Shown: positions 3,256-58,564, numbered from the stretch's first letter. The stretch is 64,000 bases of DNA from Escherichia coli (GCF_003334335.1 NZ_QOWQ01000029.1), one strand, 5' to 3'. Program-made: numbers and translations. Notes: generated from the letters alone by a model not told the origin.

Positions 3256-3328
3256 AAAAAGGCCACTCGTGAGTGGCCAAAATTTCATCTCTGAATTCAG
3301 GGATGATGATAACAAATGCGCGTCTTTC
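3256..3328 (-). ncRNA. micA: MicA (SraD) small RNA, divergent from luxS
   Basis: Minus strand reads GAAAGACGCGCATTTGTTATCATCATCCCTGAATTCAGAGATGAAATTTTGGCCACTCACGAGTGGCCTTTTT, the MicA sequence as I recall it, with its own terminator hairpin and T-run. Confidence 0.85.
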
Positions 3329-9919: not shown

Positions 9920-10005
9920 TTTGTAGGCATGATAAGACGCGCCAGCGTCGCATCAGGCATTGTGCACAGAACGGCGGATGCGGCAAAAACGCCTTATCCG
10001 CCCGA
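9920..10005. repeat. REP/BIME-type extragenic palindromes
   Basis: gcctgatgcgacgctggcgcgtcttatcatgcctaca-like and cggatgcggcaaaaacgccttatccgcc units. Confidence 0.6.
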
Positions 10006-35410: not shown

Positions 35411-38400
35411 ATGAACAGGACCAGTCCCTATTATTGTCGCCGCTCAGTACTTTCCTTATTGATATCTGCCTTGATATATGCCCCGCCCGGGATGGCTGCC
35501 TTCACTACTAATGTTATTGGTGTGGTAAACGATGAGACTGTAGATGGCAACCAAAAAGTGGATGAACGAGGTACAACAAATAACACTCATATTATCAACC
35601 ATGGCCAGCAGAATGTTCATGGCGGGGTATCTAATGGAAGTCTTATTGAATCTGGTGGATATCAAGATATAGGAAGTCATAACAATTTTGTGGGGCAGGC
35701 TAATAATACAACCATTAACGGTGGCAGACAGTCAATTCATGACGGGGGTATTTCCACAGGTACGACAATCGAGAGTGGCAATCAGGACGTTTATAAAGGG
35801 GGTATCAGCAATGGAACGACAATTAAGGGCGGTGCTTCACGCGTAGAGGGAGGGAGTGCGAAAGGAATACTCATTGATGGTGGTAGCCAGATAGTAAAAG
35901 TTCAAGGGCATGCTGATGGTACAACGATAAATAAGTCTGGCTCTCAGGACGTAGTACAAGGAAGTCTGGCAACGAACACAACCATAAATGGTGGTCGACA
36001 GTATGTTGAACAGAGCACAGTAGAAACAACAACCATTAAAAATGGCGGTGAGCAAAGAGTATATGAGAGCCGTGCGCTGGACACGACGATTGAAGGCGGA
36101 ACTCAGTCTCTGAATAGTAAGTCAACGGCAAAAAATACGCATATCTATTCTGGTGGCACGCAAATTGTTGATAACACCAGCACCTCGGATGTTATTGAAG
36201 TTTATTCTGGTGGCGTGCTTGATGTTAGTGGTGGTACGGCAACAAATGTTACCCAGCACGATGGTGCAATTTTAAAAACTAACACTAACGGTACGACGGT
36301 GAGCGGTACGAATAGTGAAGGTGCATTCTCCATCCACAATCACGTGGCAGACAATGTGTTGCTGGAAAACGGTGGTCATTTAGACATAAACGCATATGGT
36401 TCGGCAAACAAGACGATTATTAAAGATAAAGGAACAATGTCAGTTTTAACCAATGCTAAAGCTGATGCGACCCGAATAGATAATGGCGGGGTTATGGATG
36501 TTGCAGGAAACGCGACAAATACCATAATTAATGGTGGCACACAGAATATTAATAATTATGGCATAGCCACAGGCACCAATATCAACAGCGGAACGCAAAA
36601 TATCAAAAGCGGCGGGAAAGCTGACACAACAATTATATCCTCCGGGAGCCGGCAGGTTGTTGAGAAAGATGGTACGGCAATTGGCAGCAATATTAGCGCC
36701 GGAGGCTCGCTGATTGTCTATACCGGCGGTATTGCACATGGGGTTAACCAGGAGACGGGCAGTGCTTTAGTTGCCAACACGGGTGCAGGGACTGATATCG
36801 AAGGATACAACAAGCTCTCTCACTTCACTATTACCGGAGGGGAGGCTAATTATGTTGTGCTGGAAAATACCGGCGAACTGACGGTAGTGGCTAAAACCTC
36901 GGCGAAAAATACTACCATTGATACTGGCGGTAAGCAGATTGTCCAGAAGGAGGCTAAAACAGATAGCACCAGACTTAATAATGGCGGCGTTCTGGAGGTT
37001 CAGGACGGTGGTGAGGCTAAGCATGTTGAGCAACAATCCGGCGGCGCATTAATTGCTTCCACGACCTCCGGAACACTTATCGAAGGAACCAACAGTTATG
37101 GTGATGCTTTCTACATCAGGAATTCAGAAGCTAAAAATGTAGTGCTGGAAAACGCTGGCTCATTAACAGTCGTCACTGGTTCCCGCGCAGTTGACACGAT
37201 TATTAATGCCAACGGCAAAATGGATGTTTATGGAAAAGATGTTGGCACTGTACTCAATAGTGCTGGCACCCAAACAATATATGCCAGTGCCACTTCTGAT
37301 AAAGCAAATATCAAAGGTGGCAAGCAAACGGTATATGGTTTAGCCACTGAAGCAAATATCGAAAGTGGTGAACAAATTGTTGATGGTGGGTCAACAGAGA
37401 AAACACACATCAATGGTGGCACGCAAACCGTTCAGAATTATGGTAAGGCAATCAATACCGATATCGTCTCTGGCCTACAACAAATTATGGCAAACGGGAC
37501 AGCGGAAGGTTCCATTATTAATGGGGGTTCACAGGTAGTTAATGAGGGCGGTCTGGCTGAAAACTCGGTGCTTAATGACGGCGGCACACTCGATGTGCGG
37601 GAGAAAGGCAGCGCAACGGGGATACAGCAGAGTAGCCAGGGCGCTTTGGTTGCAACCACCAGGGCGACGCGGGTCACAGGAACACGCGCGGATGGCGTCG
37701 CGTTCAGCATCGAGCAGGGTGCGGCGAACAATATCCTGCTGGCAAATGGCGGCGTGTTAACCGTGGAGTCAGACACCTCTTCTGACAAAACACAGGTCAA
37801 TATGGGCGGACGGGAGATCGTCAAAACAAAAGCCACTGCGACAGGCACGACGCTCACCGGCGGTGAACAAATTGTCGAGGGTGTGGCGAATGAGACAACA
37901 ATTAACGACGGCGGAATACAAACAGTTTCAGCTAACGGAGAGGCAATAAAAACAAAGATCAATGAAGGCGGTACGCTGACAGTCAACGATAATGGCAAAG
38001 CGACAGATATCGTCCAGAACAGCGGTGCCGCTCTCCAGACGAGCACGGCTAACGGTATTGAAATCAGCGGTACTCACCAGTACGGTACTTTTTCCATTTC
38101 CGGCAATTTAGCGACCAATATGTTGCTGGAAAATGGCGGTAATTTATTGGTATTAGCAGGTACCGAAGCTCGCGACTCCACGGTTGGCAAGGGTGGGGCA
38201 ATGCAAAACCTGGGTCAGGACTCCGCCACAAAGGTTAACTCTGGCGGGCAATATACCCTTGGGCGGTCAAAAGATGAGTTTCAGGCTCTGGCCCGGGCAG
38301 AAGATCTCCAGGTCGCTGGCGGTACGGCAATCGTCTACGCAGGTACGCTGGCGGATGCATCGGTCAGTGGCGCGACAGGAAGCCTGTCGTTAATGACGCC

Positions 38401-39991
38401 ACGGGATAATGTTACGCCAGTTAAACTCGAAGGGGCGGTCCGGATTACCGATAGCGCGACATTGACTCTGGGAAATGGCGTCGATACCACGCTTGCCGAC
38501 CTGACGGCTGCCAGCCGGGGCAGTGTCTGGCTTAACAGCAATAATTCCTGTGCAGGTACCAGCAACTGCGAATATAGAGTAAACAGTTTGCTACTCAACG
38601 ACGGTGATGTTTATTTGTCAGCACAAACAGCAGCGCCTGCCACAACTAACGGTATCTACAATACGCTGACAACCAATGAACTTTCCGGTAGCGGTAATTT
38701 CTACCTGCATACCAACGTTGCAGGCTCCCGGGGCGATCAACTGGTCGTCAACAACAACGCCACTGGTAATTTTAAAATCTTTGTTCAGGATACCGGCGTC
38801 AGCCCACAGTCTGACGACGCGATGACGCTGGTGAAAACAGGGGGAGGGGATGCTTCGTTTACGCTGGGCAATACCGGCGGTTTCGTTGATCTTGGGACCT
38901 ATGAGTATGTCCTGAAAAGTGACGGCAACAGCAACTGGAACCTGACCAATGATGTCAAACCCAACCCGGACCCCATCCCAAATCCAAAGCCAGACCCAAA
39001 ACCCGATCCAAAGCCAGACCCAAATCCAAAACCAGACCCTACTCCCGATCCAACGCCGACACCCGTTCCGGAGAAACGCATTACGCCTTCTACGGCAGCC
39101 GTACTCAATATGGCAGCAACATTACCGTTGGTATTTGATGCTGAGCTAAACAGTATTCGCGAGCGGTTGAACATAATGAAAGCGAGTCCACACAACAATA
39201 ATGTCTGGGGGGCGACGTATAACACCCGTAATAATGTCACCACCGATGCGGGTGCCGGGTTTGAGCAGACGCTGACCGGAATGACAGTGGGGATCGACAG
39301 CCGTAATGATATTCCTGAAGGAATTACCACGCTAGGCGCTTTTATGGGCTATTCCCATTCACATATCGGTTTTGATCGCGGAGGACATGGCAGTGTGGGC
39401 AGTTATTCTCTGGGCGGCTATGCCAGTTGGGAACATGAAAGTGGTTTCTATCTGGACGGTGTCGTGAAGCTGAACCGTTTTAAAAGTAACGTAGCAGGTA
39501 AAATGAGCAGCGGTGGAGCCGCCAATGGCAGTTACCACAGCAACGGGCTGGGCGGTCACATTGAAACCGGGATGCGATTTACCGATGGTAACTGGAACCT
39601 GACGCCGTATGCATCGTTAACGGGGTTCACCGCTGATAACCCCGAATATCATTTATCCAATGGCATGAAATCGAAATCAGTCGATACCCGCAGTATATAT
39701 CGTGAACTGGGCGCAACGCTGAGTTACAACATGCGTCTGGGGAACGGTATGGAAGTTGAGCCGTGGCTGAAGGCGGCTGTGCGCAAAGAATTTGTCGATG
39801 ATAACCGGGTGAAAGTGAATAGTGACGGTAATTTCGTCAATTATTTGTCGGGCAGACGTGGAATATACCAGGCAGGTATTAAAGCCTCATTCAGCAGTAC
39901 GTTAAGCGGGCATCTTGGGGTGGGGTATAGCCATAGTGCCGGTGTGGAATCCCCGTGGAACGCGGTAGCTGGTGTGAACTGGTCGTTCTGA
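35411..39991 (+). CDS. ypjA: AIDA-I-type autotransporter adhesin (1526 aa)
   Basis: Signal peptide MNRTSPYYCRRSVLSLLISALIYAPPGMA; long passenger of about 19-aa Gly/Thr/Asn-rich beta-helix repeats; Pro-rich linker; C-terminal beta-barrel ending ...GVNWSF; the ORF track extends 43 codons upstream to 35282. Confidence 0.9.
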   Translation: MNRTSPYYCRRSVLSLLISALIYAPPGMAAFTTNVIGVVNDETVDGNQKVDERGTTNNTHIINHGQQNVHGGVSNGSLIESGGYQDIGSHNNFVGQANNTTINGGRQSIHDGGISTGTTIESGNQDVYKGGISNGTTIKGGASRVEGGSAKGILIDGGSQIVKVQGHADGTTINKSGSQDVVQGSLATNTTINGGRQYVEQSTVETTTIKNGGEQRVYESRALDTTIEGGTQSLNSKSTAKNTHIYSGGTQIVDNTSTSDVIEVYSGGVLDVSGGTATNVTQHDGAILKTNTNGTTVSGTNSEGAFSIHNHVADNVLLENGGHLDINAYGSANKTIIKDKGTMSVLTNAKADATRIDNGGVMDVAGNATNTIINGGTQNINNYGIATGTNINSGTQNIKSGGKADTTIISSGSRQVVEKDGTAIGSNISAGGSLIVYTGGIAHGVNQETGSALVANTGAGTDIEGYNKLSHFTITGGEANYVVLENTGELTVVAKTSAKNTTIDTGGKQIVQKEAKTDSTRLNNGGVLEVQDGGEAKHVEQQSGGALIASTTSGTLIEGTNSYGDAFYIRNSEAKNVVLENAGSLTVVTGSRAVDTIINANGKMDVYGKDVGTVLNSAGTQTIYASATSDKANIKGGKQTVYGLATEANIESGEQIVDGGSTEKTHINGGTQTVQNYGKAINTDIVSGLQQIMANGTAEGSIINGGSQVVNEGGLAENSVLNDGGTLDVREKGSATGIQQSSQGALVATTRATRVTGTRADGVAFSIEQGAANNILLANGGVLTVESDTSSDKTQVNMGGREIVKTKATATGTTLTGGEQIVEGVANETTINDGGIQTVSANGEAIKTKINEGGTLTVNDNGKATDIVQNSGAALQTSTANGIEISGTHQYGTFSISGNLATNMLLENGGNLLVLAGTEARDSTVGKGGAMQNLGQDSATKVNSGGQYTLGRSKDEFQALARAEDLQVAGGTAIVYAGTLADASVSGATGSLSLMTPRDNVTPVKLEGAVRITDSATLTLGNGVDTTLADLTAASRGSVWLNSNNSCAGTSNCEYRVNSLLLNDGDVYLSAQTAAPATTNGIYNTLTTNELSGSGNFYLHTNVAGSRGDQLVVNNNATGNFKIFVQDTGVSPQSDDAMTLVKTGGGDASFTLGNTGGFVDLGTYEYVLKSDGNSNWNLTNDVKPNPDPIPNPKPDPKPDPKPDPNPKPDPTPDPTPTPVPEKRITPSTAAVLNMAATLPLVFDAELNSIRERLNIMKASPHNNNVWGATYNTRNNVTTDAGAGFEQTLTGMTVGIDSRNDIPEGITTLGAFMGYSHSHIGFDRGGHGSVGSYSLGGYASWEHESGFYLDGVVKLNRFKSNVAGKMSSGGAANGSYHSNGLGGHIETGMRFTDGNWNLTPYASLTGFTADNPEYHLSNGMKSKSVDTRSIYRELGATLSYNMRLGNGMEVEPWLKAAVRKEFVDDNRVKVNSDGNFVNYLSGRRGIYQAGIKASFSSTLSGHLGVGYSHSAGVESPWNAVAGVNWSF
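38960..39070 (+). repeat. Tandem PKPD/PNPD/PTPD codon repeat (proline-rich linker) inside ypjA
   Basis: PNPDPIPNPKPDPKPDPKPDPNPKPDPTPDPTPTPVP encoded by reiterated ccaaa(g/a)ccagaccc units. Confidence 0.8.
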
Positions 39992-40151: not shown

Positions 40152-40514
40152 TGGTGGAGCTGGCGGGAGTTGAACCCGCGTCCGAAATTCCTACATCCTC
40201 GGTACTACATGCTTAGTCAGTCTTTACATTCGCTTGCCAGCTGCGGACGGACACGCCACTAACAAACTAGCCTGATTAAGTTTTAACGCTTCAACCCCAG
40301 GCAGGGCTTCCACGCGATCTCTTTTGGGTTTGACCTCTCTTGATCCCCGTCCTAAGAGCGGAGGCTAGGGAGAGAGGGCTCTAAGCAGGTTATTAAGCTG
40401 CTAAAGCGTAGTTTTCGTCGTTTGCGACTATTTTTTGCGGCTTTTTACGAGGCCAACCGCCCCTCGGCATGCACCTTGGGTTTCGCAAATCCCGTCGAAT
40501 CCAGAATCAGCCCC
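40152..40514 (-). ncRNA. ssrA: tmRNA (SsrA)
   Basis: Minus strand reads GGGGCTGATTCTGGATTCGACGGG...CGGGTTCAACTCCCGCCAGCTCCACCA and includes the tag ORF gcaaacgacgaaaactacgctttagcagcttaa (ANDENYALAA). Confidence 0.95.
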
Positions 40515-58362: not shown

Positions 58363-58384
58363 AGTGTTGCCTTTTTGTTATCAA

Positions 58385-58414
58385 TAAAAAAGGCCCCCCG
58401 ATTTGGGAGGCCTT
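58385..58414 (-). terminator. pheA attenuator terminator
   Basis: aggcctcccaaatcggggggcct followed by a T7 tract on the minus strand, between pheL and pheA. Confidence 0.75.
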
Positions 58415-58460
58415 ATTGTTCGTCTTCGCATTCTGTTTCACACGACGAAACGCCTCCCAT

Positions 58461-58508
58461 TCAGGGGAAGGTAAAAAAGAATGCGAAGAAAAACGGTATG
58501 TGTTTCAT
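58461..58508 (-). CDS. pheL: pheA leader peptide (15 aa)
   Basis: Minus strand atgaaacacataccgtttttcttcgcattcttttttaccttcccctga = [15 protein letters not shown]. Confidence 0.9.
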
Positions 58509-58564
58509 GTTTGTTTCCTTAAGTGACTTTAGTACAGTACCCGTACTGTTTTCACGCTGTCAAC

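Follow-up and report, generated by a model that had tools for sequence, protein, structure and literature searches.

Slow, lineage-bound length change in the proline-rich linker of the Escherichia coli autotransporter YpjA/EhaD

Does the proline-codon repeat of a large Escherichia coli adhesin gene act as a device for frequent length change, or is it an ordinary part of the protein that varies slowly? The question is raised by ypjA, which lies at positions 35411-39991 (+ strand) of a 64,000-nucleotide stretch of E. coli DNA (GCF_003334335.1 NZ_QOWQ01000029.1), hereafter the window, where ORF (open reading frame) scanning and translation show an uninterrupted frame of 1526 aa plus stop. A preliminary description, made from the sequence alone, had presented this gene as an AIDA-type autotransporter with a contractible codon repeat and a possible alternative start, inside a decayed island; what it observed has been confirmed in part, and its interpretation is partly supported. 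Our analysis gives a probability of about 0.85 to the reading that the locus is the known ypjA (EhaD in enterohaemorrhagic E. coli, EHEC), a classical type Va autotransporter adhesin whose disordered spacer drifts in length by rare in-frame slippage. The length of this linker differs among E. coli alleles, and its changes are rare, slow and bound to lineages.

Identity and architecture of YpjA

The name and family first proposed for the gene are borne out by the RefSeq name, the synteny and the Pfam and NCBIfam domains, all of which agree. RefSeq annotates DNA that is 100% identical to this stretch with an intact coding sequence at the same coordinates, under the name 'adhesin-like autotransporter YpjA/EhaD'. 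A DNA search against 5426 complete E. coli genomes found 94-100% identity to ypjA-annotated loci in 2436 of them, and the position between ileY and ssrA, with common neighbours, is likewise that of a YpjA/EhaD orthologue. YpjA of E. coli K-12 (b2647) and EhaD of EHEC O157:H7 are the same gene, and their flanks on the ileY side are alike. The copy in the window shares 99.9% identity with that of K-12, from which four single-nucleotide polymorphisms separate its coding sequence, and about 98% with that of O157; over 18 kb, the window matches several wild isolates at 100% identity.

YpjA has the parts that define a type Va autotransporter: a Sec signal peptide, a beta-helical passenger with a junction domain, and a 12-strand barrel with a pore helix. 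The signal peptide, of about 29 aa (MNRTSPYYCRRSVLSLLISALIYAPPGMA/AF; 35411..35497, +), begins with a positively charged n-region, its hydrophobic core spans aa 11-21 (Kyte-Doolittle), and a SignalP 6.0 signal peptide of the same 29 aa is given for YpjA in a toolkit paper (PMC13101318). The passenger, which has roughly 12 significant AIDA repeats (PF16168), occupies aa 64-946 (35600..38248, +), where Pfam detects 11 significant repeats within the first 1000 aa and weaker ones besides; according to a DNA repeat search, these are only 60-83% identical at the DNA level. The same interval contains seven NCBIfam matches to TIGR04415, a kind of repeat that AAH/TibC heptosyltransferases target, and the window annotation has no glycosyltransferase gene beside ypjA.

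Towards the C-terminus, a Pertactin-type junction or autochaperone domain (aa 1057-1179; 38579..38947, +) is supported by Pfam PF03212 (E = 8.5e-46), by a sequence match to pertactin (1dab) and by modelled beta-helix rungs. The outer-membrane beta-barrel (aa 1263-1526; 39197..39988, +) is recognized by PF03797 (aa 1265-1504; E = 1.5e-46), by TIGR01414 (329 bits versus a cut-off of 16), by AlphaFold2 and by Foldseek. The proline tract, read from the codons as (X-Pro)19, lies between these two domains, at aa 1183-1220 (38957..39070, +). A Pfam 'PARP' match over the tract was rejected as spurious.

The structure of the C-terminal 526 aa (aa 1001-1526) was predicted with AlphaFold2 from 24 homologues, with a mean predicted local distance difference test score (pLDDT) of 83.4. 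In the model, beta-helix rungs continue as far as aa 1179, aa 1226-1258 form a helix and the barrel has 12 strands, while aa 1185-1220 fall below a pLDDT of 50 and carry no secondary structure. The helix (39086..39184, +) is predicted to plug the barrel pore and aligns with the first part of the crystal structure of the BrkA beta-domain. By sequence, the solved structures matched were Vag8, the BrkA beta-domain and pertactin; Foldseek, run on the model, returned BrkA 3qq2 with a TM (template modelling) score of 0.91, and also pre-cleavage EspP, Hbp, NalP, AIDA-I 4mee and pertactin. From this layout, the proline tract would be an unstructured spacer located outside the barrel, between the end of the autochaperone and the pore helix.

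It is important to note that membership in better-known families does not follow from this architecture. NCBIfam has no YpjA-specific model, and YpjA falls far below the cut-offs of the Ag43, AIDA-I and BafA models of that collection; it scores 350 bits against NF033177 and 266 bits against NF033176, both with cut-offs of 1200, and so lies outside the self-associating family as these models define it.

The proline tract and its length classes

The tract consists of 19 consecutive X-Pro dipeptides, KPNPDPIPNPKPDPKPDPKPDPNPKPDPTPDPTPTPVP. The preliminary description had called its DNA a near-perfect tandem repeat of 12-nt units, which proved to be an overstatement: Tandem Repeats Finder reports a period of 12 with 3.8 copies and 78% matches, a period of 6 with 68% matches, and a period of 42 with 1.9 copies and 87% matches, and copies of the tract shifted by 42 nt are 62-79% identical. 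The exact 12-mer AAGCCAGACCCA is present only twice because the codons for Pro, Lys, Asp and Asn switch between synonymous forms. The DNA of the tract is therefore a degenerate repeat.

The preliminary description also proposed that the repeat is prone to change in length, and a comparison of alleles shows that its length does vary. A search with a query of 451 nt, with the tract at its centre, found matches in 2525 genomes, from which we sampled 59 evenly spaced full matches. The matched span was 451 nt in 30 of the 59 genomes, 445 nt in 19, 457 nt in eight, and 433 nt and 571 nt in one genome each. Representative alleles were fetched and their codons read, and every difference in span was found to fall inside the tract. 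Linkers of 16, 18, 19, 20 and 39 X-Pro were seen in E. coli, all separated by insertions or deletions (indels) of 6 nt or its multiples, in frame. The 19 X-Pro class includes the window and K-12 (97.4-100% identical to the window), while the 18 X-Pro alleles are 94.4-95.7% identical to it and the 20 X-Pro alleles, from O157 and O145, are 97.2-98.0% identical and carry an extra NPNP (12 nt). The EhaD allele of O157 thus has one X-Pro more than that of the window. One KPDP (12 nt) has been lost in the 16 X-Pro allele. The 39 X-Pro allele, from enterotoxigenic E. coli (ETEC), contains 33 Asn-Pro dipeptides, including nine successive AATCCA units, and its sequence looks like the product of a recent expansion. 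Another allele, L001, differs from the window over the whole 451 nt solely by a 6-nt deletion, which marks a recent event on the background of the window. When nine alleles are aligned along the full gene, only one further coding indel is present, a 6-nt gap at 36384-36389.

Tandemly repeated codons in the gene of a surface protein, with length variants that include an expansion to 39 X-Pro, could be taken for a hypermutable contingency repeat, with frequent length change providing phase or antigenic variation of the adhesin. We give almost no credence to this explanation. Units of 6 and 12 nt make a change of frame impossible, and the repeat is degenerate (68-78% matches). In addition, the linker form of the window is present at 99% identity or more, a threshold that rules out any 6-nt gap in the 451-nt query, in 1269 genomes; these include many K-12 laboratory descendants, among which are hundreds of long-propagated derivatives, and isolates of human, pig, bird, cattle and seawater origin. 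At the same threshold, the O157 form was found in 268 genomes and the form of strain 042 in 348, and all five O157 genomes sampled have one common linker length. Neither mark of a contingency locus was found in the tract, that is, a non-triplet unit or promoter site, or a long perfect tract that varies among close relatives. Allele alignments show instead that the length class tracks the allele identity class. The length change first suggested is real, but the fast, 'contractible' behaviour is not seen, given the single form shared by 1269 genomes.

The tract is best read as a spacer under low constraint that gradually changes length through rare slippage. Translation would start at the ATG at 35411, and the protein would follow the established autotransporter pathway: the signal peptide of about 29 aa would carry YpjA through Sec, the beta-barrel assembly machinery (BAM) would insert the C-terminal 12-strand barrel, and the AIDA-repeat beta-helix of about 1150 aa would thread outward, folding from the pertactin-like autochaperone. 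(X-Pro)19, at aa 1183-1220, would then stand outside the membrane, joining the base of the beta-helix to the pore-plugging helix as a spacer that has no fixed structure and is probably extended. Few sequence demands beyond 'X-Pro' would act on such a tract, built from similar 6- and 12-nt units, and occasional replication slippage or unequal recombination may add or remove whole dipeptides in frame. Such events are rare, scrambling among synonyms leaves exact repeats short, and the resulting length classes pass stably down their lineages.

Homologues carry between 0 and about 78 extra residues at the position of the spacer, with unrelated proline-rich motifs such as PEPEP, PVDPVEPP, TPPDDGG and a 12-aa PAKQVIPASVLT repeat; in E. 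albertii homologues, the spacer segments have lengths of 36, 38, 48 and 50. The E. coli paralogue YejO, whose junction, helix and barrel are 49-50% identical to those of YpjA, lacks a proline tract here, which shows that the fold can do without the spacer. The best 120 matches of a protein search with the C-terminal 526 aa were only fragments and paralogues, with no cluster of full-length YpjA; for this reason, allelic diversity within E. coli was taken from the DNA searches.

Linker length could also be adaptive, setting how far the passenger reaches beyond the outer membrane and being tuned to the thickness of the O-antigen or capsule. Surface glycans shield short adhesins such as Ag43, and the tract is extracellular, proline-rich and, in the model, predicted to be extended. 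Discrete length classes also last in lineages of differing serotype, for example 20 X-Pro in O157/O145 versus 19 in the K-12-like group, and the X-Pro pattern is under strong purifying selection, with a ratio of non-synonymous to synonymous divergence (dN/dS) of 0.07 for the tract within E. coli. We nevertheless regard this explanation as unlikely. The common classes differ by one or two dipeptides, well under 1.5 nm when extended, which is small relative to the O-antigen; YejO works without any tract; and the agreement of length class with allele phylogeny is equally expected from neutral inheritance. A spacer that drifts slowly under low constraint accounts better for these observations.

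Start codon and the invariant leader

The reading frame of ypjA is open for 43 codons upstream of 35411, up to a GTG at 35282, as the preliminary description had noticed. Its suggestion that translation might begin in this segment (35282..35410, +) found no support. The annotation with 1569 codons, whose length is the one cited in 'codon 165 of 1569' (PMC1868505), has been superseded, and the current RefSeq start is 35411. A Shine-Dalgarno-like AGAGGA, read from the sequence, is located at 35397..35402 (+), 8-9 nt before this ATG, and no comparable site at usable spacing precedes any of the three upstream in-frame starts. The extension is probably not translated as part of YpjA: the Shine-Dalgarno site, the n-h-c layout of the signal peptide, which fits 35411 when the two starts are compared, and the absence of the motif of an extended signal peptide region (ESPR) all favour 35411, at which we infer that translation starts.

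A precursor of 1569 or 1558 aa, starting at GTG 35282 or ATG 35315 and bearing an extended signal region as in many large autotransporters, is very unlikely. Its frame is open in all nine alleles compared, the 43 codons are identical in all of them, and the older annotation adopted its length. Nevertheless, the ESPR motif (Pfam PF13018) has no match in the 150 aa from GTG 35282, neither 35282 nor 35315 is preceded by a Shine-Dalgarno sequence, and the one strong hydrophobic core, which occupies aa 11-21 in the short form, would lie at residues 54-64 of the long one. The 29-aa peptide of SignalP 6.0 also runs from 35411 (PMC13101318), and a paralogous copy of the region has W-to-R, K-to-E and K-to-R changes in the frame of the extension. 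Moreover, conservation reaches synonymous sites and the non-coding DNA upstream of 35282, which argues for constraint at the level of nucleotides rather than of protein.

This conservation defines an invariant leader of 171 nt (35254..35424, +), which includes the first 14 nt of the coding sequence and has no variable site in nine alleles whose coding sequences differ by up to 5.6% (mean pairwise synonymous divergence, dS, about 0.08). Across ypjA as a whole, variable sites number about 9 in every 100 nt. Of 3011 genomes, 2598 match the interval 35230-35430 with an identity of 99% or more, the proportion for coding segments being about 40-50%. In the paralogous copy at the ymgJ-minE locus, these 201 nt are 94.5% identical, against about 87% for the 5' block around them.

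We consider it possible, if rather doubtful, that the 171-nt block is an undescribed cis-regulatory element (acting as a DNA platform for regulation, as a 5' leader RNA or through translation of an upstream ORF) that keeps the cryptic adhesin and its ymgJ-locus paralogue silent or conditional. The leader RNA has a minimum-free-energy z-score of 0.02, comparison with the paralogue yields no compensatory changes, the sigma-70 promoter scan of 34500-35600 gives no site on the + strand, and the Rfam scan of the whole window returns nothing at ypjA. Searched against one genome per species, an exact 22-mer of the leader had three matches, each in a short contig or a metagenome bin with a non-enterobacterial label; they are probably due to contamination and carry no information across species. 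PGAP annotates a 39-aa ORF at 35227..35346 (+), MPHSYAEYHHFIMMSLMSGEHNTLALSLQDESPGLVPVG, as a hypothetical protein in all genomes checked. Its frame differs from that of the old ypjA extension, which it overlaps along with the invariant leader, and the changes in its ymgJ-locus copy are mostly non-synonymous.

The ypjA paralogue itself, in the ycgH/ycgI region at the ymgJ-minE locus of other strains (L018:2823-3535 and L022:5794-10933), has a leader and a barrel 87-96% identical to those of ypjA. What remains of it in most strains is the leader, joined to the final 345 nt of the barrel; it is longer in an O139:H1 strain, where an IS1203 element is located exactly in its proline linker.

Expression, surroundings and relatives

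Reports on YpjA point to a gene that can be expressed. According to reviews, Roux et al. 2005 and Wells et al. 2008 demonstrated that expression of YpjA/EhaD leads to adhesion and biofilm. Strains carrying ypjA::Tn5 or a ypjA deletion have been reported to shed fewer outer-membrane vesicles in K-12, K1 and an avian pathogenic strain, and the avian pathogenic ypjA mutant was attenuated. Induced biofilm and vesicle-poor mutants thus speak for some expression, or a function, of the gene. An RpoS-holoenzyme SELEX (systematic evolution of ligands by exponential enrichment) peak has been listed between ypjA and ileY. In addition, an antisense ORF within ypjA has been reported by PIRT-Seq as translated in K-12 ('CDS87'); it corresponds to an 85-aa ORF at 36767-37024 (-) in the window, where it differs by one nucleotide (Q to L).

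Four points weigh against our reading of the locus. In reviews, the Ghigo group calls these adhesins cryptic under standard laboratory conditions, which is at odds with the mutant phenotypes reported by others. The tract's dS within E. coli, 0.34 or four times the flanking value, may be raised in part by misalignment of repeat units. Slippage is deduced from the form of the alleles. Finally, the nucleotide-invariant block upstream of 35411 implies some constraint and leaves formal room for a translated extension.

The preliminary description had been struck by an intact adhesin, and the frame is indeed unbroken in the window; elsewhere, the intactness of ypjA depends on lineage. Any match to the gene is present in 5336 of the 5426 complete genomes, but at least 80% of it only in the same 2436. 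Decayed forms are common in E. coli: frameshifted, truncated, interrupted by insertion sequences (IS), or carrying a deletion of 1310 nt (38197-39506) that recurs in other strains, shifts the frame and takes the end of the junction domain, the linker and half of the barrel. Genomes with 73% coverage of the gene were considered as possible products of recombination between passenger repeats, an explanation that was rejected as they carry this frameshifting deletion.

The surroundings correspond to a decayed island on one side only. Upstream lies an AT-rich block (29000-35500, 33-43% GC) with an amylase-like pseudogene (29488-31740, -), ileY (32300-32375), the ypjCB pseudogene (33126-34499) and a recombinase fragment (34836-35003), which looks like an old, decayed insertion beside a tRNA gene. 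Downstream, 160 nt past the ypjA stop, the immediate neighbour is an intact ssrA, encoding transfer-messenger RNA (tmRNA) (40152..40514, -; ARAGORN, Rfam RF00023 with 295.8 bits, and the annotation), followed by smpB and core genes, the order being smpB, ratA, bamE and recN; this side does not fit the island first described. In K-12, the CP4-57 prophage is inserted between ypjA and ssrA, whereas it is absent from this position in the window, where the attachment site at ssrA is unoccupied; the window therefore comes from a non-K-12 strain with an empty attachment site. Elsewhere in the window, matches at the Rfam gathering score were obtained for the MicA small RNA (3257-3328, -), naRNA4 (9926-10003, -), the Phe leader (58384-58509, -) and RyfD (61815-61953, +).

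Within ypjA, the most divergent part by far is the passenger tip (35591-36010, aa 61-200), with dS of 0.24, dN of 0.11 and 18-36 variable sites per 100 nt. Given this pattern, the distal end of the adhesin may be a mosaic into which divergent alleles have been imported.

Several known autotransporters resemble YpjA in parts. TibA, a self-associating autotransporter of ETEC, is shorter than YpjA and is glycosylated by the adjacently encoded TibC. The two proteins share a domain order of repeat passenger, junction, separate proline-rich domain and membrane domain; the proline-rich domain of TibA comprises residues 627-677 (PMC3835316). Pertactin of Bordetella matches the YpjA junction domain in its C-terminal part (PF03212; 1dab), with a different repeat motif. 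It carries PQP repeats near its C-terminal part ('region 2'), whose number is polymorphic between strains, and its polymorphism is best known in region 1 (GGxxP). AIDA-I and Ag43 have AIDA-type and heptosylation-target-type repeats in common with YpjA, which remains far below their equivalog cut-offs; a review places YpjA with them in phylogenetic group 4, and YpjA is not known to self-associate.

The discovery value of this locus is small: ypjA/ehaD was already annotated and partly characterized, its proline spacer is ordinary and slowly evolving, and length-polymorphic proline-rich spacers are familiar in autotransporters. Our study does clarify the start codon and the signal peptide with respect to the older 1569-codon annotation. 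The linker classes of 16, 18, 19, 20 and 39 X-Pro could mark lineages, and the tolerance of the spacer for 0 to about 78 residues would be useful for surface-display scaffolds based on YpjA. The invariant leader is the only element that may be informative on the control of cryptic E. coli adhesins.

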